IMG/VR virus record: IMGVR_UViG_2548876940_000011 | Length of the DNA: 39,560 nt | Reading direction: 5' to 3' (one strand) | DNA from: a virus | Lineage: Duplodnaviria > Heunggongvirae > Uroviricota > Caudoviricetes | Translations under genes and position numbers: made by a program | Notes under the pieces: model-generated | What the model saw: the letters and a program-made list of their open reading frames with translations, nothing else | Databases searched by the model: none | What the model was told of the DNA's origin: nothing | Shown here: one piece after another, positions 1,324-11,268 of the stretch | Numbering within the stretch: position 1 is the stretch's first letter | How the letters are laid out: the number at the start of each line of letters is the position of its first letter

Positions 1324-1590
1324 ATGAGGGTATCCAGACAAGCATCGAATAATTTGTTTGTTCGAGAGGGGTGTGACTGGTCTGCTAAAGCGGTATATGC
1401 AGCCCTTGAAAACAAAGGCACAGACCTCCCTGAACTGGAAAGGGAGTTAGGATTAAAAAGCGGATCAATGCGCAATGTGTTTTACCGCCAGTGCCGTAAA
1501 TACGAAGCCGCCATCGCCGAAAAAATAGGGGTTGAACCTGCTGTAATCTGGCCCAGCAGATACCAGGTGGACGCCAGAGAAGTGGCTTGA
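1324..1590 (+). CDS. ner: Ner-like DNA-binding early regulator (Ner/Nlp family)
   Basis: 88 aa; C-terminal EPAVIWPSRYQ matches the Ner family signature; lies directly upstream of the transposase. Confidence 0.85.
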   Translation: MRVSRQASNNLFVREGCDWSAKAVYAALENKGTDLPELERELGLKSGSMRNVFYRQCRKYEAAIAEKIGVEPAVIWPSRYQVDAREVA

Positions 1591-1600
1591 TGGGGGATGT

Positions 1601-3691
1601 ATGTGGGTAACAGCAAAAGAATGTGTTGGTCTTCCTGATTTACCAATGATGGAACATAACATTCGCCATCGACTCACAAAAGCAGCTGCGGGAAATGCAG
1701 CCATGTTACGCAAACGTAAGGGGACAAAAGCAATCGAATTTAATATCGATTGTTTGCCTTCTGGCGCGCAACAAGTATTGCGTGAACGTTATGCCCTTCA
1801 ACTGATGACGCAAAAAGCTGATGAATCACCGGCTCCGGTGGTGACAAAGGCCAGACGCTCATCTGCCGTGGTTGATGCGGTGGAGGCATATCGCGGATCA
1901 CCACAACTGATGCTCGAACGCCTCAATGCCCTGACTGAAAACCAGCGCCAGGTGGCTGATGCACGAATCGCGATCGTCAGCGAAGTTCTGAAAGTCGCGC
2001 AACAACCTGGTTTCAGCTGTGCGAAGGCTATCCGGTTTATCGTTGACAACCTGGCACGTTCGCAACTGGACGAGCGCATTGTGGCAATGGTTGAGACGGC
2101 GAACGCCAAAAAGGGAAACAGCCGTGCGTTGAGTGAAATCACGCTGAAACGCTGGATTGCAGCCTTTAACAAGGCGCAGAACGCCGCTGAACGCCTGCTT
2201 TTGCTGGCACCTGGTAAGCGCCAGGAAATAAAAGCCGAAGATATTAACTGGCTGCCCGAATTTCTGGCGCAGTATCGCCAGTCAAACGGCCGACCAATGA
2301 CCGAGGCTTACGAGGATTTTGTCGCTGAATGGCAGCACCGGCACGCTGATGAGCCTTATATGCTCGATATCATGCCGTCTTATGACACCATTCGCCGCGC
2401 AATGAAGAAACTGCCGGAAGTGGTGAAACAAAAAGGCCGGGTGACCGGCAGTGAATACCGCCAGCTTGAGGGATTCACGCGCCGCGACTGGTCCAGAATG
2501 CCGGTGAATTATGTCTGGATTGGTGACGGTCACGGCATGAAGCTGAAATGCGCACACCCGGTTCACGGTCGGCCATTTGCACCGGAAGTGACCTTTGTTA
2601 TCGACGGTGGCACGCGCTTTGTGGTGGGCTGGAGCCTTGACCTGGCTGAAAATGTTTTCGCCGTAGCCGGTGCCATACAGCACGGCATTCGCCATCACGG
2701 CAAACCGTTTCTGTATTACTCGGATAACGGCTCCGGGGAAACCGCCGACATCCTGGATAAGGAGGTTGTGGGGATACTGCCGCGACTGGGGATTAATCAC
2801 CCGACCGGGATTGCCGGTAATCCGCAGGGACGAGGCATTATCGAACGGCTTAACCGCACATTACCGATGCGCATAGCCCGTAAATACCGCACCTATTTCG
2901 GGAAAGGTGCAGATCGCGAGACGTTACGCAAAACCAACCGCGATTTACGCTCGGCATTTACTGCCCTGCAACAGGGCAAACGGCTGAACGCCCGGCAGCA
3001 GTCAGCGATGCGTGATTTACCGTCCTGGTCTGAACTGATTGATGCCATTCGTGACGGTGTTGAGTGGTACAACAACCGGCCGCACGATGAATTACCGGTG
3101 AAGCCGAACGGCAAGCATTACAGCCCGGCGGAGTTCAGAAAAAAACGCCTGGCGGAAGAGGACACGGAAATTGAATGGCTGTCCGATGTTGAGCTGCGGG
3201 ATATGTTCCGGCCGATGGTGGAACGCCCTGTAAGACGCTGTGAAATACGCTGGCTGAATAATATTTACTACGCGCCCGAGCTGCGTGACGAGCATGGTCG
3301 TAAGGTGCTTATCAGCTATGACATTCATGATGCCGAACGAATTACCGTACGTCGCCTGGATGGCAGCGTGATTTGCGAGGCGGTATGGGACGGCAATAAA
3401 CGCGAAGCCTTCCCGATCAGCGCGGAATACCACAAACAGCAGCAGCGCCTTAAAGGCATGCGTAAACGCGCAGAGGAAAAAATCCGTGATGCCGAGGATG
3501 AGATTGTCAACGTGCTGGAGCACAAGCCACAGGAGCCGTGGCTGGAAAATATATACCGCCCTGTGGGTAATACGGTGATCGTTCAGCAACCGGTCGCTGA
3601 CGATGAACCTGATGAAGAATACGAGCGTAATTTCCAGCGGGGATTGCAGCTGCTTGAAGCGAAATTAAAAGAAAATGACCCTCTGGCCTGA
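1601..3691 (+). CDS. Mu A-type DDE transposase
   Basis: 696 aa ORF immediately after ner and before the B-like ATPase; size and position match MuA. Confidence 0.9.
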   Translation: MWVTAKECVGLPDLPMMEHNIRHRLTKAAAGNAAMLRKRKGTKAIEFNIDCLPSGAQQVLRERYALQLMTQKADESPAPVVTKARRSSAVVDAVEAYRGSPQLMLERLNALTENQRQVADARIAIVSEVLKVAQQPGFSCAKAIRFIVDNLARSQLDERIVAMVETANAKKGNSRALSEITLKRWIAAFNKAQNAAERLLLLAPGKRQEIKAEDINWLPEFLAQYRQSNGRPMTEAYEDFVAEWQHRHADEPYMLDIMPSYDTIRRAMKKLPEVVKQKGRVTGSEYRQLEGFTRRDWSRMPVNYVWIGDGHGMKLKCAHPVHGRPFAPEVTFVIDGGTRFVVGWSLDLAENVFAVAGAIQHGIRHHGKPFLYYSDNGSGETADILDKEVVGILPRLGINHPTGIAGNPQGRGIIERLNRTLPMRIARKYRTYFGKGADRETLRKTNRDLRSAFTALQQGKRLNARQQSAMRDLPSWSELIDAIRDGVEWYNNRPHDELPVKPNGKHYSPAEFRKKRLAEEDTEIEWLSDVELRDMFRPMVERPVRRCEIRWLNNIYYAPELRDEHGRKVLISYDIHDAERITVRRLDGSVICEAVWDGNKREAFPISAEYHKQQQRLKGMRKRAEEKIRDAEDEIVNVLEHKPQEPWLENIYRPVGNTVIVQQPVADDEPDEEYERNFQRGLQLLEAKLKENDPLA

Positions 3692-3766: not shown

Positions 3767-4699
3767 ATGACCGATATAAACGATGTAATCAAGACCATTG
3801 ATGAACTTATTGATGGCGGCGTGCTGACGCAGTATGCCATCGCCAGAGAGGCGGGAATTTCCGACGGCACATTATCGGCTTTCCGCAAGGGGAAATATAA
3901 AGGCGATAACGCCGCTGTGGCTGCTTCCCTGCGCTCCTGGTATGAGAACTGGAATAAACAAAGCGCACTGCCGGAACCGCCGCAGTTTGTGGAAACTCAG
4001 ACAGTCCAGGAGCTGCGCGCACTGTTTCAGGCGGTTCGCCTGATGGGCTGTATTAACGTTATTGTGGGCGTACCGGGTGTGGGTAAAACGGCCACTGCCC
4101 GTAATTACTGCCAGGAGCAACCAAACACCTGGATGATCACCCTGTCACCCGCGCACTCCAGCGTCACGGAGTGTCTGCTGGAGCTGGCCGATGCGCTGGG
4201 GATTGATTACACCCGCGCGAACAAAGGGGCATTATCCCGCGCCATCCGCCGTCGCCTGATGGGAACGCGTGGACTGGTGATTGTGGATGAGGCGGATCAT
4301 CTTGGTATTGACGGTCTGGAGCAACTCCGGGCAATTCAGGACGCCACGGGGATCGGGATGGTGCTTATTGGTAACCCGCGCGGATTGTTTAAAGGTGGAC
4401 GCCGCGCCTTTGATGATTTATCGCGCCTGTTCAGCCGTCTTGCCCGTACAAAACAACTTCGCAAGGCCAAAAAGGCGGATGTGCTGGCCATTGCCAGGGC
4501 ATGGGGTATCAGTGGTGAGGCCGAGCTGGCTGTCATGCAGGCTATCGCTGAAAAGCCGGGAGCGTTACGCGTTCTGACACATACGCTTAACCAGGCGTGG
4601 CTCACCGCCAGCGGTGAAGGCGCGGCGCTGACAGAAAAACATATTAATGCGGCCTTTAAAGAGGTTTATACCAACCCTGAATTACTCTCACAGGTGTGA
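3767..4699 (+). CDS. Mu B-type transposition ATPase (AAA+ target DNA activator)
   Basis: 310 aa; Walker A motif GVPGVGKT; Walker B-like VIVDEAD; directly downstream of the transposase. Confidence 0.9.
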   Translation: MTDINDVIKTIDELIDGGVLTQYAIAREAGISDGTLSAFRKGKYKGDNAAVAASLRSWYENWNKQSALPEPPQFVETQTVQELRALFQAVRLMGCINVIVGVPGVGKTATARNYCQEQPNTWMITLSPAHSSVTECLLELADALGIDYTRANKGALSRAIRRRLMGTRGLVIVDEADHLGIDGLEQLRAIQDATGIGMVLIGNPRGLFKGGRRAFDDLSRLFSRLARTKQLRKAKKADVLAIARAWGISGEAELAVMQAIAEKPGALRVLTHTLNQAWLTASGEGAALTEKHINAAFKEVYTNPELLSQV

Positions 4700-4935: not shown

Positions 4936-5190
4936 ATGAATATGCAATCCTGCGGTAACAAAATGAATTTATTCGACTCCCTGAACAGCGCGCGCCGTCT
5001 GACCGAACTTGCCGGTGCGGTACTGGAACGCAGTAAGCGCTATCCGCAACGTTTTGCACTGAAAACCACGCCGCCGGTAGGCAACGTGCAGGGAACCGGT
5101 GAAATTGAAATCACCATACAGACCAACGGCCTGCGCCGCCGTGTGAAGGCCACCCGCATCAGCGGCTGCACGGTTTACTGGGAGGTGTGA
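4936..5190 (+). CDS. Hypothetical early protein
   Basis: ORF 4924..5190; in-frame ATG at 4936 or 4942 after GAGGTG; start uncertain. Confidence 0.45.
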   Translation: MNMQSCGNKMNLFDSLNSARRLTELAGAVLERSKRYPQRFALKTTPPVGNVQGTGEIEITIQTNGLRRRVKATRISGCTVYWEV

Positions 5191-5191
5191 G

Positions 5192-5473
5192 GTGAAACGA
5201 AATCTCATTGCATGGGCGTGGTCGAGTGGTCTTATTGAGTTTGGTTACGTCCTGCCGGAAGGTGCATTGCCGATAGTTGCCGGAAAGCCTGCCACGGTAC
5301 GGCATGTGATTGAGGTTATGGCGCGTCATGGACGTGATGAACAGGAGCAGTTACTGGTTCCGGGGATACCGGAAGCGGTGACGGAGGAAGAAGCCTTTAA
5401 TGCCATGATTCGGTTCTGCCGTGAGGTCAGACGCCGGGTCAGTTATCCAAACAGAACGAGGACCAGAGGATGA
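5192..5473 (+). CDS. Hypothetical early protein (GTG start)
   Basis: 93 aa ORF; GTG preceded by GGAGGTGTGAG; tightly packed with neighbours. Confidence 0.4.
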   Translation: MKRNLIAWAWSSGLIEFGYVLPEGALPIVAGKPATVRHVIEVMARHGRDEQEQLLVPGIPEAVTEEEAFNAMIRFCREVRRRVSYPNRTRTRG

Positions 5474-5742
5474 GTAAAGTCGTACACATTATTTTCGAAT
5501 ATAAGGAGCACGTTATCCATAAAAACGCTGATGGAACAGTGCGCATGGGGGTAAGTCTGGACATACGTTCAACCGGGATAAAGCAGAAAGGTGATGGACC
5601 CGCCATGATTTTTGGGGTGGTTATGCTCGCGGAAAGCAGAAACTTCGCAGAGCTTGTGGCAATGAAAGCCAGTGCATTCATGAAAGACAGGGGCATGGCT
5701 TCCGGGGTTATTAACGGTAATGAATTTAATCAGCAGGGGTAA
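5470..5742 (+). CDS. Hypothetical small early protein, paralogue A
   Basis: 90 aa, begins MSKVVHIIFEYKEHV; 4-bp overlap with the upstream ORF. Confidence 0.45.
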   Translation: MSKVVHIIFEYKEHVIHKNADGTVRMGVSLDIRSTGIKQKGDGPAMIFGVVMLAESRNFAELVAMKASAFMKDRGMASGVINGNEFNQQG

Positions 5743-5746
5743 TTCC

Positions 5747-6040
5747 ATGAGCAAAGTACGCGTTATTTTTGAATTTAACCACGTAATGCATGAAGTAAAG
5801 CCAGCCGGTAATGATAGTCAGGAAATCACGGAGGGGGTTACTGCCACTGTAAAAATCGAACGTGATACGGAGAACAGACCGACAGGCCCATGTGATGTTT
5901 ATGCGCAAATTCTTAAATATCACAGCCCCACAATTATTCAGTTTCTGACAGATGAACTTCAGGGTTCCATGCAGGCTCTGGGGGTGAAAAGCAGCATTGA
6001 GCGCCGCTCCTTGCAGAACGCACCAGATACATTGCAATAA
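5747..6040 (+). CDS. Hypothetical small early protein, paralogue B
   Basis: ORF 5720..6040; internal ATG at 5747 gives MSKVRVIFEFNHV, similar to the N-terminus of the preceding ORF; RBS-like AGGGG upstream. Confidence 0.45.
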   Translation: MSKVRVIFEFNHVMHEVKPAGNDSQEITEGVTATVKIERDTENRPTGPCDVYAQILKYHSPTIIQFLTDELQGSMQALGVKSSIERRSLQNAPDTLQ

Positions 6041-6051
6041 GGAAAAACAAA

Positions 6052-6582
6052 ATGGCAAAACGCGTTACAAAATTAAAGGCTGTAGCCGAGGCCGCACCGC
6101 AGACCCGCGAAGAAGTCAGCCGCGATATCCGCACCCTGGGCGATATTCAGCGAGAGGCGCTGCGCCTGGAAACGGCGATGAATGATGAAGTGGCAGAAAT
6201 CACCGCCCGTTATACGCCGCAGATTGAAAATCTTAAAAAGCAAATCAAAGTGCTTTTTAAAGGGATTCAGGACTGGTGTAAAACCAACCGTGATGAGCTG
6301 ACGAACGGCGGCAAAACCAAAACTGCCAATCTGACCACCGGAACGGTGTCATGGCGGCTGGGAACGCCATCATGCAGCGTCAGCCGTGATGTGGAAGGTG
6401 TGATTGACACGCTGCGCCGTATGGGGCTTGAGCGATTCATCCGCACGAAAGAGGAAGTGAACAAGGAAGCCGTCCTGGCGGAGCCGGATGCGGTGAAAGG
6501 CATTGCCGGTATAAAGGTGAATAAAGGCGCTGAAAGTTTTTATGTCGAGCCTTTTGAACAGGATGCCGGACTGAATAAATAA
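6052..6582 (+). CDS. gam: Gam, Ku-like host-nuclease inhibitor that binds DNA ends
   Basis: 176 aa; segments LGDIQREALRLETAMND, NRDELTNGGKTKTANL, FIRTKEEVNKEA match Mu Gam as recalled from memory. Confidence 0.9.
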   Translation: MAKRVTKLKAVAEAAPQTREEVSRDIRTLGDIQREALRLETAMNDEVAEITARYTPQIENLKKQIKVLFKGIQDWCKTNRDELTNGGKTKTANLTTGTVSWRLGTPSCSVSRDVEGVIDTLRRMGLERFIRTKEEVNKEAVLAEPDAVKGIAGIKVNKGAESFYVEPFEQDAGLNK

Positions 6583-6679
6583 CACCGCATTAATTATTTA
6601 AATATCACTTCATTTTAATTATGGCGCTCGCGTCAGGGGACTGCTTGCGCCTGAAAGCTGAAAATAAGGAATCGGAAAT

Positions 6680-7222
6680 ATGGCATATTTTTATTTCAAA
6701 TTAGACCGTGTGCAGACAAATAAATATTTCACCAAATATCAACAGGCTGTTTTACCGCTACGCAACAGTATTCTTCGGACATTACTGAAAGATACAGGCG
6801 CTGCCGGATTGCGCTTAAAGCCGTTCGCCATGGACAGAATCAGTGAGTTTTATTTTGCCGGTGCTCTGCCTGCGGGCTGGCGTAAGCGCGATGATGTGGC
6901 TTTTATCGGTGGCGGACAGTGCTTTATAGCCAGACCTGATGAGTCATGCCCTGAAGGACCGGCGATTGCCGCAATGATTGAAGCCGCTGAACGCGAGTTA
7001 AGAAAGCGTCCTGATTTCCTTGTCTGGCTCTGTGAAAAGCTGGGGGTAATGAGAATCCCCTCCATGTTTAACACGGACTCCTGGTGGACCCCTTCGTTCT
7101 CCCGTGATGCTCTGTGCGTGGTGTTTAAAGTGGGCGCTTATGGCAGGGAAATAAACGGATGTATTCCTGAAGAATGCCAGGAAATTAAACATTCTGAATA
7201 TGTGGCGCTGACGGAGGAATAA
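6680..7222 (+). CDS. Hypothetical early protein
   Basis: 180 aa ORF; first of a tightly coupled run of four similar-sized ORFs; no motif recognised. Confidence 0.55.
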   Translation: MAYFYFKLDRVQTNKYFTKYQQAVLPLRNSILRTLLKDTGAAGLRLKPFAMDRISEFYFAGALPAGWRKRDDVAFIGGGQCFIARPDESCPEGPAIAAMIEAAERELRKRPDFLVWLCEKLGVMRIPSMFNTDSWWTPSFSRDALCVVFKVGAYGREINGCIPEECQEIKHSEYVALTEE

Positions 7223-7225
7223 TTC

Positions 7226-7759
7226 ATGATTGATGCAAAAGTGCTTGAAGGGGTTAAAAACTGGCTGAGTATTTACGGGCGTCTGACCTGCGGCGTACTG
7301 GCTGAAAAAATGAATATGCCGCCATCCTCCATGGTTTATTTTCTGCGTGATGCGGTTGATGCCGGGGTGCTGACGGAATGTAACGGTTTTTATGATATTC
7401 CGCGTCCCCGCCCGGTGCAGCCGGTTCGTCGCAAATGCAGACAGGAATCTGCGGCTGATGATGTTCAGTGGTGCAGCTTCAGAAAATCCCTGCCATGGAT
7501 TGAGGGGCATGATATTCCGTCGATGGCGTGGGAATTTGCTCAGGGCGTTCTGACCTGTGAAACCGTTTATGTGGTGGCTGAAGTTGATGAGCAGGCCATG
7601 AAAGAAGGCGTGCCCCAGTTTGTGATGGCGTATATCGACATTCGCCTGGGTGTCATCATCTGCGGTTTAAGCGGCTGGAATATCACCGCGCGTGTTCTGC
7701 GCTACCTGATTGTTGACCGGACAGCAGCGCCTGCCGGGATATCTGCGGAGGTGGCGTAA
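7226..7759 (+). CDS. Hypothetical early protein, possible N-terminal winged-helix
   Basis: 177 aa; starts 4 bp after the previous stop. Confidence 0.55.
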   Translation: MIDAKVLEGVKNWLSIYGRLTCGVLAEKMNMPPSSMVYFLRDAVDAGVLTECNGFYDIPRPRPVQPVRRKCRQESAADDVQWCSFRKSLPWIEGHDIPSMAWEFAQGVLTCETVYVVAEVDEQAMKEGVPQFVMAYIDIRLGVIICGLSGWNITARVLRYLIVDRTAAPAGISAEVA

Positions 7760-8274
7760 TGTTCTTTAAAACATCAAACCCTTCCGCGCTGGCTGCGTGG
7801 CAAAAATACCAGCAGGACTGCCAGACGGTAAAAGATGAGGCGAAACGCCTTGAGGCCGTGCTGAATGTTGCGTGCCGGTCGGTATTTGAATTCAGTATCA
7901 GTGGTTTTTGTTTTAAGGGACTGCGTTTTACGGAGGACAAATATCCTTTTCATCGCGACTTATGGCGAAAACCGACTGCGTCGAATGGCTGGAGCTGCAC
8001 ACCGCGCACATCACGTATCCCTAAAGCCCTGCGTGTTGCCTCTGATGAACTGAACAGTCTGTGGCGTGAATATTCGCCCGTCACGTATGCCAGAACCGAT
8101 GCCCTGTTGTTCTGGCTGGGTATTGACTTCTCAGCAATATTGTATGGTCCCGTGAACTGGTTCTGCGTTGACAATGTGATTTATCTTCAGTGCGAAGATG
8201 ATTCCGCAAAACGGAAAATGACCGAAATTCTGTCTGATGAGTTTTATGCTGCCGAAAAGCGAGTCAGGGGGTGA
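7759..8274 (+). CDS. Hypothetical early protein
   Basis: 171 aa; start overlaps the previous stop (TAATG). Confidence 0.55.
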   Translation: MFFKTSNPSALAAWQKYQQDCQTVKDEAKRLEAVLNVACRSVFEFSISGFCFKGLRFTEDKYPFHRDLWRKPTASNGWSCTPRTSRIPKALRVASDELNSLWREYSPVTYARTDALLFWLGIDFSAILYGPVNWFCVDNVIYLQCEDDSAKRKMTEILSDEFYAAEKRVRG

Positions 8275-8277
8275 TGT

Positions 8278-8829
8278 ATGATGATTTTACAACACATGGG
8301 GCGAAAAGGTCGTACACCCGCTCATGTCCGCGCGTGGACACCTGAAGAAGATGCGCTACTGATTGCGCTTTATTCATCCACCCCGGTTAAGGATATTGCT
8401 GCCAGAATAAAAAGAACTGTCTGGGCTGTATATAACCGGACTGGTGTATTGCGCAGTTCATACCCGGAGTTACTGAAATATAAACACCCAAGATTTACAC
8501 CTGATGAAGATAAGTTTATTCGAAAAAATGCCAGAACAATGACCTGCCAGCAAATGGGAGAATATCTCGGACGTAATAAAGATTCTGTCAGATGTCGGGC
8601 AGGAATGATTGGTGCTGGATTAACAAAGTGCGGAGAGTTACGCCCCGGCACGCGCATATCTGATGATGATGTACGTCTTATACGTGCGCTGCGTGATTCC
8701 GATTACCCACGCCGTCTGTCATTCCGGGAAATTGGCGAAAAGTTTGGAATATCTGAACATTCTGCTCACGCAGTTTATTACCGTCGCCGGACTGCCGAGG
8801 ACGCTGTATTACGGGAGTTAACGCCATGA
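8278..8829 (+). CDS. Putative DNA-binding protein with three tandem Myb/SANT-like repeats
   Basis: 183 aa; three ~50-aa repeats (WTPEEDALLIALY..., FTPDEDKFIRKNA..., ISDDDVRLIRALR...) each shaped like a helix-turn-helix unit. Confidence 0.5.
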   Translation: MMILQHMGRKGRTPAHVRAWTPEEDALLIALYSSTPVKDIAARIKRTVWAVYNRTGVLRSSYPELLKYKHPRFTPDEDKFIRKNARTMTCQQMGEYLGRNKDSVRCRAGMIGAGLTKCGELRPGTRISDDDVRLIRALRDSDYPRRLSFREIGEKFGISEHSAHAVYYRRRTAEDAVLRELTP

Positions 8830-9155
8830 TAACGACCTTATTTGTTGAATCAGATGAACCTCTTGTGTGTGCCGCCGGAATGCCGCTCTGTGGCGGAACG
8901 CTGACCGGTGTTTATTTCGGGGATTTACGCGGTTATCCCTGGCATTCACTGAATGATGCTTTCCCACCTGATATGGAGGCTGTCGTGCTGATTGTTCAGT
9001 ATGGTCACCGTCAGGAGCTGCGCATCGGCCATATGGGGTATGAAGGCTTTTTTGTTGATGAAGAAACCGGAGCCTGCCTTGAAGATGAAGACGGACAGGT
9101 GACGCACTGGTGTCATATTTCGGCTTTACCGGAATTACGGGAGGTGAATGCGTGA
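8826..9155 (+). CDS. Hypothetical early protein
   Basis: 109 aa; 4-bp overlap with the upstream ORF. Confidence 0.5.
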   Translation: MITTLFVESDEPLVCAAGMPLCGGTLTGVYFGDLRGYPWHSLNDAFPPDMEAVVLIVQYGHRQELRIGHMGYEGFFVDEETGACLEDEDGQVTHWCHISALPELREVNA

Positions 9156-9502
9156 GAAGTTATATTGATAATGAAAAGCTGGAGACAATAAGCGACTGTC
9201 TTAGCTTGCTGGCAAAAATCAAAGAAACTATTGAAGAGATTAAATTTCAGCTTGAATACGCACCATGTGGCGATGATGCATGGCGTAATGCTGCCAGAAA
9301 AGCACTGGCTGTCTTTCAGAAACAACGCCGGGCTGTTGAATACCGCCTTGCTGTATTGCGCCAGGAGGAAAAGGAAAGAAATATAAGACGTCATGAACGC
9401 GTTAATGATTTCCTTGTTCGTGAATTAAAAGAGCGGGTGCCGGAGTCGGTATTTTTTGAATGTGAGGCTATAGCCCGTAGCAAAGCACTGGAAACAGATT
9501 AA
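9152..9502 (+). CDS. Hypothetical coiled-coil protein (GTG start)
   Basis: ORF 9110..9502; in-frame GTG at 9152 follows GGGAGGTG and overlaps the upstream stop; start of AT-rich block. Confidence 0.4.
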   Translation: MRSYIDNEKLETISDCLSLLAKIKETIEEIKFQLEYAPCGDDAWRNAARKALAVFQKQRRAVEYRLAVLRQEEKERNIRRHERVNDFLVRELKERVPESVFFECEAIARSKALETD

Positions 9503-9517
9503 GCAGGCAGGTGAATA

Positions 9518-9826
9518 ATGAGTATTGAATTAAGATCGTCTTATGAATATCGCAAAATCCTTATCGCCGGAGGCATGAAACCGGAAGATGCAGAGCAATT
9601 CGTTTCTTTTATGGATAAAGAATGTGACAAGCGGGATATGCCAGAAATTATTATGGATGACATGATTCTGGATTCAGCCGTGGCGTTAAGTCCGTTATGG
9701 ATTGTGCATACTCTTGCGGAAATAGCTAAAAGAAGTGACAAGCAGGCGGCTGTCGCCGCCCTGCGATTACTGGCTGAATTAAGTTGTTCAGTCAATCCCA
9801 ATACGTTCTTTGACGAACCTGGTTAA
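9518..9826 (+). CDS. Hypothetical protein
   Basis: 102 aa; RBS-like GCAGG upstream; AT-rich; 3-prime end overlaps the convergent minus-strand gene. Confidence 0.5.
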   Translation: MSIELRSSYEYRKILIAGGMKPEDAEQFVSFMDKECDKRDMPEIIMDDMILDSAVALSPLWIVHTLAEIAKRSDKQAAVAALRLLAELSCSVNPNTFFDEPG

Positions 9827-10198
9827 CATTGATTTGGTAACTTCTTTGATTAGATCAAATGGTGCGTCTGTAAACTCCTTTTTGATTCTTTCAAGGATTG
9901 GTTTTTTTCTCAGGGCGTTAGCTAAATCATGCCCCTGCTGGGTAAGCATAATGGGCGTGTTTCTGAAACCAACGCCCAGAGAATGGAAAAAGAAACCAAT
10001 ATATTTGGGTGTTTCTGACTGCATATCACCATTAACAATTGAGCCATTATCAGCGAGAAGCATAAGATGAAAAACTTTTTTATCCTTTTCCTCTCCTTCT
10101 GCCTCAGCCATGCCCAGATCCTGTAGTGTAAGGAAAGGTGTTTCAGCATCCTGAAAAGTTGTGAGAATACTTAATACTTCATCGTAATCTATTTTCAT
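9788..10198 (-). CDS. Hypothetical protein on the opposite strand inside the early operon (moron-like)
   Basis: 136 aa; markedly AT-rich by eye relative to flanking genes; convergent 39-bp overlap with 9518..9826. Confidence 0.55.
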   Translation of the reverse strand: MKIDYDEVLSILTTFQDAETPFLTLQDLGMAEAEGEEKDKKVFHLMLLADNGSIVNGDMQSETPKYIGFFFHSLGVGFRNTPIMLTQQGHDLANALRKKPILERIKKEFTDAPFDLIKEVTKSMLTRFVKERIGID

Positions 10199-10262
10199 AT
10201 CGATACCTTTAGTTTTATCCGGGCGGCGTTGCCATGCCGCCTGTTGTTACGGAGACACGATA

Positions 10263-10775
10263 ATGAATCGCGCTTCCCTGATTACCTTAATACATGTCGC
10301 AAAACGCGATCTACAGCTTGACCATGAGACCTACACATCCGTACTACTGGCAGCCACCGGCAAACCCAGTTGCCGGGATATGTCACCGGATGAGTTATCC
10401 CGCGTGCTGGATGTTTTCAAAAAACGCGGTTTTAAAGTGCGTCAGAAGCCGGTTAACCGGGCCTTAAAACCGGGGACGGTGACCGCCAAAATTCGCGCCA
10501 TCTGGAAAGTGATGCACCGGCAGGGCTTTATCGCTGATGGCGGGGAAAACGCCATTAACCGCTGGGTGAAATCGCAGACGGCCGCGCAGAACGGCGGTGA
10601 AGGTGTGGCTAACTGGCAGTGGCTGGAGCAACACCCCGCACTGGCCTCTGATGTGCTGGAGCGTCTCAAACGCTGGCACCGCCGCAAAATGCTGGATGTG
10701 CTGGGGATGTCAGCGCGTACAGTGATAAGTTATGAGCGCGTTTGCAGGCTGTATGAAAAATCATTCCCCCGTTAA
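10263..10775 (+). CDS. Mu gp16/GemA-like early regulatory protein
   Basis: 170 aa directly upstream of Mor, as in Mu; assignment by position and general resemblance. Confidence 0.65.
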   Translation: MNRASLITLIHVAKRDLQLDHETYTSVLLAATGKPSCRDMSPDELSRVLDVFKKRGFKVRQKPVNRALKPGTVTAKIRAIWKVMHRQGFIADGGENAINRWVKSQTAAQNGGEGVANWQWLEQHPALASDVLERLKRWHRRKMLDVLGMSARTVISYERVCRLYEKSFPR

Positions 10776-10845
10776 CTCCAAATCCCGCCACAGCGCGGGA
10801 TTTTTATTTTAAACTTGCCCTGTGTAATGATGACCGGAGGCGGGT

Positions 10846-11268
10846 ATGGCTGAAACACAGATGAGCATGTTTGGTGACAGCGAACAGCTGCACGCGCTGA
10901 TTGACCGTCTGGATGATATTCCTGATGATGAGCTGAAAAAGAACTGGCCCGGCACGCTGCGGGACCTGGTTGATGTGATCAGTGCTGAACTGCACCGTCA
11001 GGGGATTGAACCTGCTCAGGCGGGAATGCTTGCCCGTAAAGTTGCGGCCGCACAGGCCGGGTACATGGGCGGGCGTGGTTATTATCTCCCGGTCGGTGAA
11101 TCCCTTTTCACCGAACTGCGCAATAATGAGATTTTTTCCCGCTGGAGCCAGGGCGAAAAAATTGAAACCCTGCGCCGCCACTACCAGATGTCAGAGACGC
11201 AGATTTACTCCGTTATCCGTAACCAGCGCCGCCTGCATCAGGAACGCACGCAGCCCCGGCTTTTCTGA
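10846..11268 (+). CDS. mor: Mor/C-family transcriptional activator of middle/late genes
   Basis: 140 aa; acidic N-terminus (MFGDSEQLHALIDRLDDIPDDEL) and C-terminal HTH (LRRHYQMSETQIYSVIRNQRR) typical of Mor/C; placed just before the lysis genes. Confidence 0.8.
   Translation: MAETQMSMFGDSEQLHALIDRLDDIPDDELKKNWPGTLRDLVDVISAELHRQGIEPAQAGMLARKVAAAQAGYMGGRGYYLPVGESLFTELRNNEIFSRWSQGEKIETLRRHYQMSETQIYSVIRNQRRLHQERTQPRLF

Follow-up and report, generated by a model that had tools for sequence, protein, structure and literature searches.

The five closely packed open reading frames (ORFs) at positions 6680-9155 of IMG/VR record IMGVR_UViG_2548876940_000011 raise two questions: (i) whether they constitute a system in their own right; and (ii) what kind of function their products might have. 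The window, by which we mean the whole 39,560-nt stretch of this Caudoviricetes record, includes a Mu-type left end, running from repressor to lysozyme according to the ORF list and Pfam matches, and the five ORFs (O1 to O5; Table 1) lie between its gam and gemA homologs. The semi-essential early region of phage Mu has been known since the 1980s, and most of its genes are still without an assigned function. A published description of the functions of the Mu semi-essential genes is 'largely unknown' (PMC3820752). We propose, with a probability of roughly 0.7, that the block occupies the centre of the part between gam and gemA in a semi-essential early operon, carried by a Mu-like Escherichia coli prophage, that it is composed of the core gene gp11 (O2) together with exchangeable accessory genes, and that it is not a five-gene system.

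The gene content of the segment differs greatly from phage to phage. A sample of 46 distinct gam-to-gemA intervals of 1.0-3.7 kb, retrieved from IMG/VR by protein and motif queries, comprises 31 architectures. gp11 is present in 43 of the intervals, gp12 (O3) in 28, O1 in 25, O4 in 20 and O5 in 11; O6 and O7, the genes that follow, are found in 6 and 24, respectively. The block is composed of one core gene, gp11, and four exchangeable genes. O1, O3, O4 and O5 behave as dispensable accessory genes, because they are present or absent among close relatives and because O4 shows allele replacement (see below). The earlier note had called all five accessory early genes of unestablished function; their early position and their lack of an established function stand, as does accessory status for four of the five, but not for O2, which is a near-universal core gene.

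Two arrangements illustrate the turnover. In 11 contigs of the same lineage (L047 and ten others), O1 is replaced by a 14-codon mini-ORF, MKYVYIVINNVVGK, which lies just after the spacer element that follows gam and directly before gp11; these prophages otherwise keep the O2-O8 set. The divergent contig IMGVR_UViG_2663762818_000004 (L039) carries tandem O1 paralogs at 5001-5546 and about 5558-6100 (37% and 31% identity to O1), with gp11, gp12 and an O5 homolog (83%) behind them; no gam match was detected upstream of the paralogs.

The five ORFs are real protein-coding genes under purifying selection. Their positions, lengths and plus-strand orientation are as the earlier note had given them. 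The Prokaryotic Genome Annotation Pipeline (PGAP) calls the same five coding sequences in the JKHS016 prophage of E. coli and in each of three diverged E. coli copies, against which all five frames remain open. Ratios of nonsynonymous to synonymous divergence (dN/dS) against the three copies are 0.33-0.46 for O1, 0.10-0.15 for O2, 0.15-0.28 for O3, 0.14-0.24 for O4 and 0.14-0.18 for O5. That some of the ORFs might be chance open frames in a GC-balanced region deserves hardly any credence. Chance ORFs do arise here, as an antisense ORF of 170 aa (6998-7510, minus strand) illustrates; against this stand the selection on all five genes, strong PHROG matches, homologs of 35-68% identity in other phages, and confident AlphaFold2 models for O1 and O3. 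The antisense ORF, which overlaps O1 and O2, was set aside as probably a chance frame, given the purifying selection on the plus strand.

The block is ordinary for Mu-like phages, and its genes have already been annotated as hypothetical proteins in hundreds of genomes. A 2.6-kb segment comprising the block is 99.9% identical to the chromosomal prophage of JKHS016. Of 5426 complete E. coli genomes, 233 contain it, most of them at 90-95% identity; O157:H7 strains are among these. In the phage collection, near relatives are found within two Shiga toxin (Stx)-converting phages, in regions labelled 'inserted Mu-like phage'.

The packing of the genes was correctly noticed at the outset, and it is not peculiar to the block. 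The O1-O5 junctions are +3, -1, +3 and -4 nt, a GGAG-type Shine-Dalgarno-like motif lies 5' of each of the five start codons, and this stop/start layout fits a translationally coupled operon. The coupled run continues on both sides, however, so that the five do not make up a unit as had been claimed: from B (3767) to O7 (9826) the junctions are -4, 0, +1, -4, +4, +11, [97], +3, -1, +3, -4, -4 and +15 nt, with the start of O6 overlapping the stop of O5 by 4 nt, and one of the five, gp11, is a core gene. 'Five' is thus an arbitrary slice, because tight packing is typical of the whole operon. Nor does the block follow gam directly, as had been stated, since a 97-nt spacer separates gam from O1. 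A scan of the plus strand from gam to O5 found no promoter-like or terminator-like site, and the first strong terminator-like hairpin lies beyond gemA.

The statement that none of the five products belongs to a recognisable family does not hold for O2, O3 or O4. O2 has a strong Gp11_C domain, O3 is homologous to Mu gp12, and O4 has Myb/SANT and other helix-turn-helix (HTH) signals; moreover, PHROG families contain all five proteins. Only O2 and O3 have counterparts in Mu, both uncharacterised, and the five are therefore not all homologs of Mu early proteins with housekeeping roles, which the earlier note had named as the finding that would count against it. Comparison of O1-O8 with NCBIfam and PADLOC gave nothing usable. 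Searches of PDB with the sequences and profiles of O1, O2 and O3 gave only noise, for example MIF for gp11.

O2 is 68% identical to Mu gp11 over its full length of 177 aa (E 3.5e-80) and belongs to phrog_1949. Its residues 90-167 match the whole 78-position Pfam model Gp11_C (PF25754) with a score of 136.3 bits (cutoff 27; E 4.5e-40). The protein resembles Mu gp11 (Mu_11, formerly E10-E12) in its size, in the segment that it occupies and in the strength of its Gp11_C match; nothing structural differs in gp11 between the two phages, although an extra gene, O1, sits here between gam and gp11. In Mu, SfMu, Yersinia phages and the IMG/VR contigs, gp11 keeps the same position between gam and gp12 or gemA, and a search for it found Mu-like phages only (16 records). 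Mu gp11 is a protein without a characterised function. The N-terminal 60 residues are highly conserved, and matches to HTH_10, HTH_20 and HTH_CodY, all below threshold, fall there on residues 18-49, which suggests that the N-terminus may be a DNA-binding winged helix, placed ahead of a C-terminal domain specific to the family.

Given these properties, could the core gene supply the classical replication-boosting function of Mu? It is conceivable that gp11, with or without gp12 or O1, is the non-essential function 'arm', which lies between gam and gem, and that its targets are DNA or the proteins of host replication and repair. The HTH-like signals of gp11, its place as the conserved core of the interval and the fact that O1 and gp12 never occur without it in the 46 intervals are in keeping with such helpers of replication or transposition. 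We nevertheless find the proposal doubtful, because gp11 stands alone in 9 of the 46 intervals, gp12-like proteins occur without gp11 in non-transposable phages, and our literature search found no mapping of arm to a specific ORF. The first two of these observations also dispose of the idea that gp11 always requires O1 or gp12 as a partner.

O3 is 52% identical to Mu gp12 over 168 of its 171 aa (E 9.7e-63) and belongs to phrog_2314 (1.5e-80), and PF26885 is a precomputed domain on all 76 O3 homologs found. O3 shares with Mu gp12 (Mu_12, formerly E13) its place immediately behind gp11, the stop codon of the one gene overlapping the start codon of the next, as well as an N-terminal FFKT and a C-terminal EILSDEF motif. 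O3 has diverged further from Mu than gp11 has, and Mu gp12 itself is uncharacterised. The family, optional in Mu-like phages, reaches well beyond them: gp12-like proteins with 25-29% full-length identity are encoded by Lastavirus, by a further transposable phage (of Klebsiella) and by phages of Vibrio, Acinetobacter and Pseudomonas, where gp11 is missing. Three of these contexts were examined, those of Lastavirus LASTA, the transposable Klebsiella phage and one Vibrio phage, and in each the gp12-like gene sits among early or replication genes. A scan of genome contigs with the gp12 alignment retrieved only Citrobacter braakii and is little informative on the breadth of the family. In SfMu (NC_027382), we also noted a gp12 homolog at 7442-7943 that is split by a frameshift and absent from the RefSeq annotation.

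O1 is absent from Mu itself. It reaches 41% identity with an SfMu protein annotated as DUF5420 and 36-38% with proteins from Mu-like phages of Yersinia, and in both the relatives are always positioned between gam and gp11. Relatives of 37-41% identity carry the RefSeq name DUF5420; however, O1 scores below the gathering cutoff of that family (PF17457; 12 bits, E 0.18, against 26), and the best relative reaches 15.6 bits, so that no member of the O1 family attains it. The DUF5420 model has a length of 184, the same as the O1 family, and sub-threshold matches to its C-terminal half are collinear in O1 and in four of seven O1 relatives. DUF5420 is a family without a characterised function.

O1 and gp12 are probably distant paralogs, which would share an alpha/beta fold with a core of ferredoxin/RRM-like type. 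AlphaFold2 models of O1 and O3 were built from alignments of 45 and 46 relatives. The model of O1 has a predicted local distance difference test score (pLDDT) of 91.2 and a predicted template modelling score (pTM) of 0.83; for O3 the values are 93.1 and 0.83, and the remaining four O3 models scored 70-85. Both models have the same order of elements, namely a strand, a long helix, a beta-hairpin, a helix, a short helix, a beta-hairpin, a strand and a C-terminal helix. At a site that forms a loop in O3, O1 has an additional hairpin (residues 67-86). Invariant positions of the two families coincide at K7/K4, W67/W69, P86/P82, L107/L98, G122/G121, F149/Y142, E168-I169/E156-I157, E173/E161 and A176/A165 (O1/gp12). 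When the two profiles are compared with hhalign, they are collinear over 133-151 columns with E 0.012-0.013. The global score is 4.1 standard deviations above column-shuffled controls, with 1 of 150 shuffles as good, and the local score was reached by 1 of 200 shuffles.

A fold search of BFVD with the O1 model retrieved three unnamed viral proteins of the same size (template modelling scores 0.70-0.75, 17-18% identity), from which no function is transferable. No catalytic-looking set of residues is kept across the O1 and O3 families, which have in common one Lys, two Glu and hydrophobic or aromatic positions. Because the shared invariants lack a catalytic-looking set, we favour O1 and O3 as binders over enzymes.

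O4 can be divided into three tandem segments of about 50 residues (about 12-62, 66-118 and 119-176) that align on the pattern W/F-T/S-P-E/D-E-D ... R, and self-comparison of these putative repeats by BLAST gives an E value of only 0.14. Pfam Myb_DNA-binding is matched with 25.2 bits against a cutoff of 24.4, the best stretch being just residues 19-33, and there are sub-threshold matches to HTH_AsnC-type, HTH_10 and Myb_DNA-bind_6. The protein belongs to phrog_323, 'transcriptional regulator, D5-like' (5.8e-52), and its PGAP name varies by genome between SANT/Myb-like, AsnC family and DNA-binding. In profile comparison with PDB, O4 matches 2lvs_A, a protein with two HTHs (4.7e-4), as well as the Mos1 transposase in its HTH pair (0.015) and Myb proteins. 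In its putative repeats and its strong basicity, O4 is similar to proteins with tandem Myb/SANT or paired-type HTH modules, such as the N-terminal HTH pair of Mos1 and the Myb repeats. It differs in the predicted number of three repeats and in lacking a catalytic or effector domain, and the likeness to PDB entries is weak (best natural match 4.7e-4). A possibly related observation is that Mu gp9 (E8; 5494-5781) has many sub-threshold HTH matches and that its SfMu counterpart is labelled with the same PHROG description as O4; no direct similarity between Mu gp9 and the O4 repeats was detected.

O4 is also a mobile gene of the accessory set, with a predicted DNA-binding product. Two alleles exist in the lineage, 95-100% and 70-75% identical, and synonymous divergence (dS) in O4 is 0.67-0.74 compared with 0.05-0.26 in the neighbouring genes. 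This excess over the neighbours implies that O4 was replaced by recombination. Its homologs, at 34-41% identity, include one encoded among the early genes of the P2-like Citrobacter phage Shae_phiSM and others in IMG/VR contigs, many of about 35 kb.

O5 belongs to phrog_6925 (3.5e-51), and its family is tiny, with 16 matches at E<=1e-3 among 1.84 billion representatives. The relatives have the motif W..L..P ... VTHW..P, and O157-type copies encode a 103-aa form that stops six codons earlier. O5 itself has no Pfam match at E<=10, including to DUF551 (PF04448). The likeness to this small phage domain is borne by weak matches in two of seven relatives only (best E 0.025); the pattern W..L.P ... 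VTHW..P is common to DUF551 and the O5 relatives, and O5 differs in an extra N-terminal part of about 35 residues. In many relatives that are about 90-95% identical in the neighbouring genes, O5 and O6 are both missing, and O4 is then followed directly by O7.

The pattern of turnover raises the possibility that O1, O3, O4 and O5 form an anti-defence or host-takeover island, a kind of function that the earlier note had suggested looking for here, each gene neutralising a particular host defence or competitor. Such genes would lie just behind gam, whose product blocks RecBCD. The presence/absence polymorphism with its many architectures, the replacement of O4 alleles and the sharing of O4 with a P2-like phage, the tandem O1 paralogs of L039, the spread of gp12-like genes to the early regions of unrelated phages, and the small size and acidity of O5 would all be understandable on this basis. 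In spite of this fit, the idea has no direct support, and we consider it unlikely. None of O1-O5 matches a PADLOC defence-system model at E<=1; no homology or fold match to characterised anti-defence proteins (anti-restriction, Acr, Acb, Tad, Gad and others) was found, although no dedicated anti-defence library was searched. The dN/dS values of 0.1-0.46 do not make positive selection evident, and gp11 is near-universal and strongly constrained. A literature search found no experimental data, with nothing specific on DUF5420, PF25754/PF26885, the function of Mu gp11 or gp12, or accessory or anti-defence genes of Mu-like phages.

A benefit to the lysogen is another scenario, in which the genes would be expressed from the prophage like morons, for example for superinfection exclusion or for regulation of the host by HTH proteins. 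Low-level transcription of the Mu early and semi-essential region has been reported in lysogens (PMC3820752), and O4, as a predicted DNA-binding protein, is shared with temperate P2-like phages. Typical morons, however, differ from the five genes, which are without a promoter or terminator of their own and point in the same direction as the early operon, and the only opposite-strand gene here (DUF2513-like) falls outside the block. We therefore regard this scenario as very unlikely.

With regard to how the segment would operate, we return to the block as part of a longer early operon with one core gene. One long early transcript (Pe) would include the whole block, and ribosomes would probably pass from gene to gene along it. 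All five proteins may be non-enzymatic binders, with O2 and O4 binding DNA and O1, O3 and O5 binding protein or nucleic acid. Made early in lytic growth, the proteins would modulate DNA transactions of the host or the phage, or else work against functions of the host or of competitors, and the hairpin-containing spacer after gam would mark the upstream edge at which gene sets are exchanged between phages.

Several points weigh against this picture. None of the protein families has a characterised member, and the functional roles are predictions; translational coupling and co-transcription are read from the layout alone; the winged helix of gp11 is assigned from sub-threshold matches only; and 'binder, not enzyme' is argued from missing motifs. 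The homology of O1 and O3 is statistically weak at the sequence level, with an hhalign probability of 3-4% and a reversed profile that scores nearly as well in local mode. Finally, the frequencies among the 46 intervals are rough, because the IMG/VR sample has redundancy, comes almost wholly from enterobacteria and was in part retrieved with a sequence pattern.

The spacer between gam and O1 comprises an AT-rich tract, an interrupted GC hairpin and the O1 Shine-Dalgarno sequence. It is 67-74% identical to the gam|gp11 spacer of Mu, compared with about 19% for the A|B spacer, and its conservation relative to Mu is on a par with that of the flanking genes (gam 64%, gp11 69%). The exact motif occurs in 79 IMG/VR contigs, and the identifiable upstream gene is gam in all but one. 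The first gene 3' of the motif varies: in some contigs it is an O1 gene of one of three subtypes, in others gp11 or an unrelated ORF (80-233 aa). Among loci retrieved with the O1 protein, the motif is upstream of O1 in 32 of the 32 that include upstream sequence. Gam is the conserved upstream boundary of the variable segment and gemA its conserved downstream boundary, and the spacer is a conserved putative boundary element at the upstream edge.

Evidence that the spacer acts as a structured RNA is thin. In L039, the hairpin has GGCGT...ACGCC in place of GGCGC...GCGCC, which is one compensatory change (CG->UA); variation in the inner stem is mostly G-U wobbles, the folding z-score of -1.0 is not unusual, and an Rfam search of the spacer gave no match. 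Two other roles were considered and rejected. A hidden small gene is contradicted by a 1-nt indel between sequence types that shifts the frame, and an intrinsic terminator by the lack of a T-run and of a match in the terminator scan.

A more far-reaching proposal can be made, which we regard as quite unlikely in its entirety. The DUF5420-like O1 and gp12 would constitute one superfamily of phage early proteins with a fold that has no solved representative. Its members, distributed among Mu-like, Lastavirus, Vibrio, Acinetobacter and Pseudomonas phages, would be exchangeable effectors directed at functions of the host. The hairpin after gam would have a function of its own at the RNA or DNA level, as a site of processing or stability or as a boundary for recombination, and would lie at the upstream edge of the swapped cassettes.

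An implication of these results is that the segment is now sorted into testable parts, with gp11 kept almost everywhere and O4 and O5 as swappable extras, while one fold without a solved relative seems to be present in two versions, gp12 and the product of the DUF5420-like gene. Natural prophages that differ only in the presence of O1 or O5 or in the O4 allele are ready-made strains for comparison. If it is true that any of the proteins blocks a host defence or boosts transposition, the result would carry over to Mu and, for gp12, to several unrelated phage groups. The points most worth keeping are the probable O1/gp12 superfamily, the division into core and accessory genes and the conserved hairpin at the upstream edge.

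Table 1. Features of the Mu-type left end in the window, in order of position
Feature	Position	Strand	Length	Basis or remark
Repressor	556-1167	minus		ORF list
ner	1324-1590			ORF list
Transposase	1601-3691		696 aa	ORF list
B-type ATPase	3767-4699			ORF list; followed by five small ORFs before gam
gam (Mu Gam homolog)	6052..6582	+		Pfam Phage_Mu_Gam 7e-42; 57% identity to Mu Gam
Non-coding spacer	6583-6679	+	97 nt	AT-rich tract, GC hairpin, then O1 Shine-Dalgarno
Interrupted GC hairpin	6623-6651			GGCGC..GCGTC AGGG GACtGC..GCGCC
O1	6680..7222	+	180 aa	DUF5420-like
O2	7226..7759	+	177 aa	Mu gp11 homolog
O3	7759..8274	+	171 aa	Mu gp12 homolog
O4	8278..8829	+	183 aa	Predicted Myb/SANT-like HTH repeats; isoelectric point (pI) 10.0
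O5	8826..9155	+	109 aa	Small acidic protein, very narrow family; pI 4.3
O6	9152..9502	+	116 aa	GTG start (PGAP) overlapping O5 stop
O7	9518..9826	+	102 aa	Further early accessory gene; 36% identity to SfMu gp14
DUF2513-like gene	9788..10198	minus		Pfam DUF2513 6.6e-5, below cutoff; PGAP name DUF2513
GC hairpin	10222-10241			GGCGG..CCGCC, directly upstream of gemA Shine-Dalgarno; common to Mu and SfMu
gemA homolog	10263..10775	+		Pfam GemA 6.3e-28; 47% identity to Mu GemA
Terminator-like hairpin, strong	10780-10803			9-bp stem and T-run, between gemA and next activator gene; terminator scan
Mor/C-type activator	10846-11268			ORF list; lysozyme gene further on

Next to the block, gam has a dN/dS of 0.06-0.08 against the diverged E. 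coli copies. The divergence of the window from Mu is mosaic: the transposase is 22% identical to MuA, compared with 48% for B, 57% for Gam and 68% for gp11. For O6, the match to phrog_6158 starts at residue 15 of the longer ORF. The DUF2513-like gene is embedded on the minus strand within the early operon and overlaps the end of O7; it is found in 8 of 46 related intervals and could be a moron expressed from the prophage. The Mu counterpart of the GC hairpin that precedes gemA falls within the annotated semi-early promoter, and the activator encoded beyond gemA is 40% identical to Mu C compared with 28% to Mu Mor.

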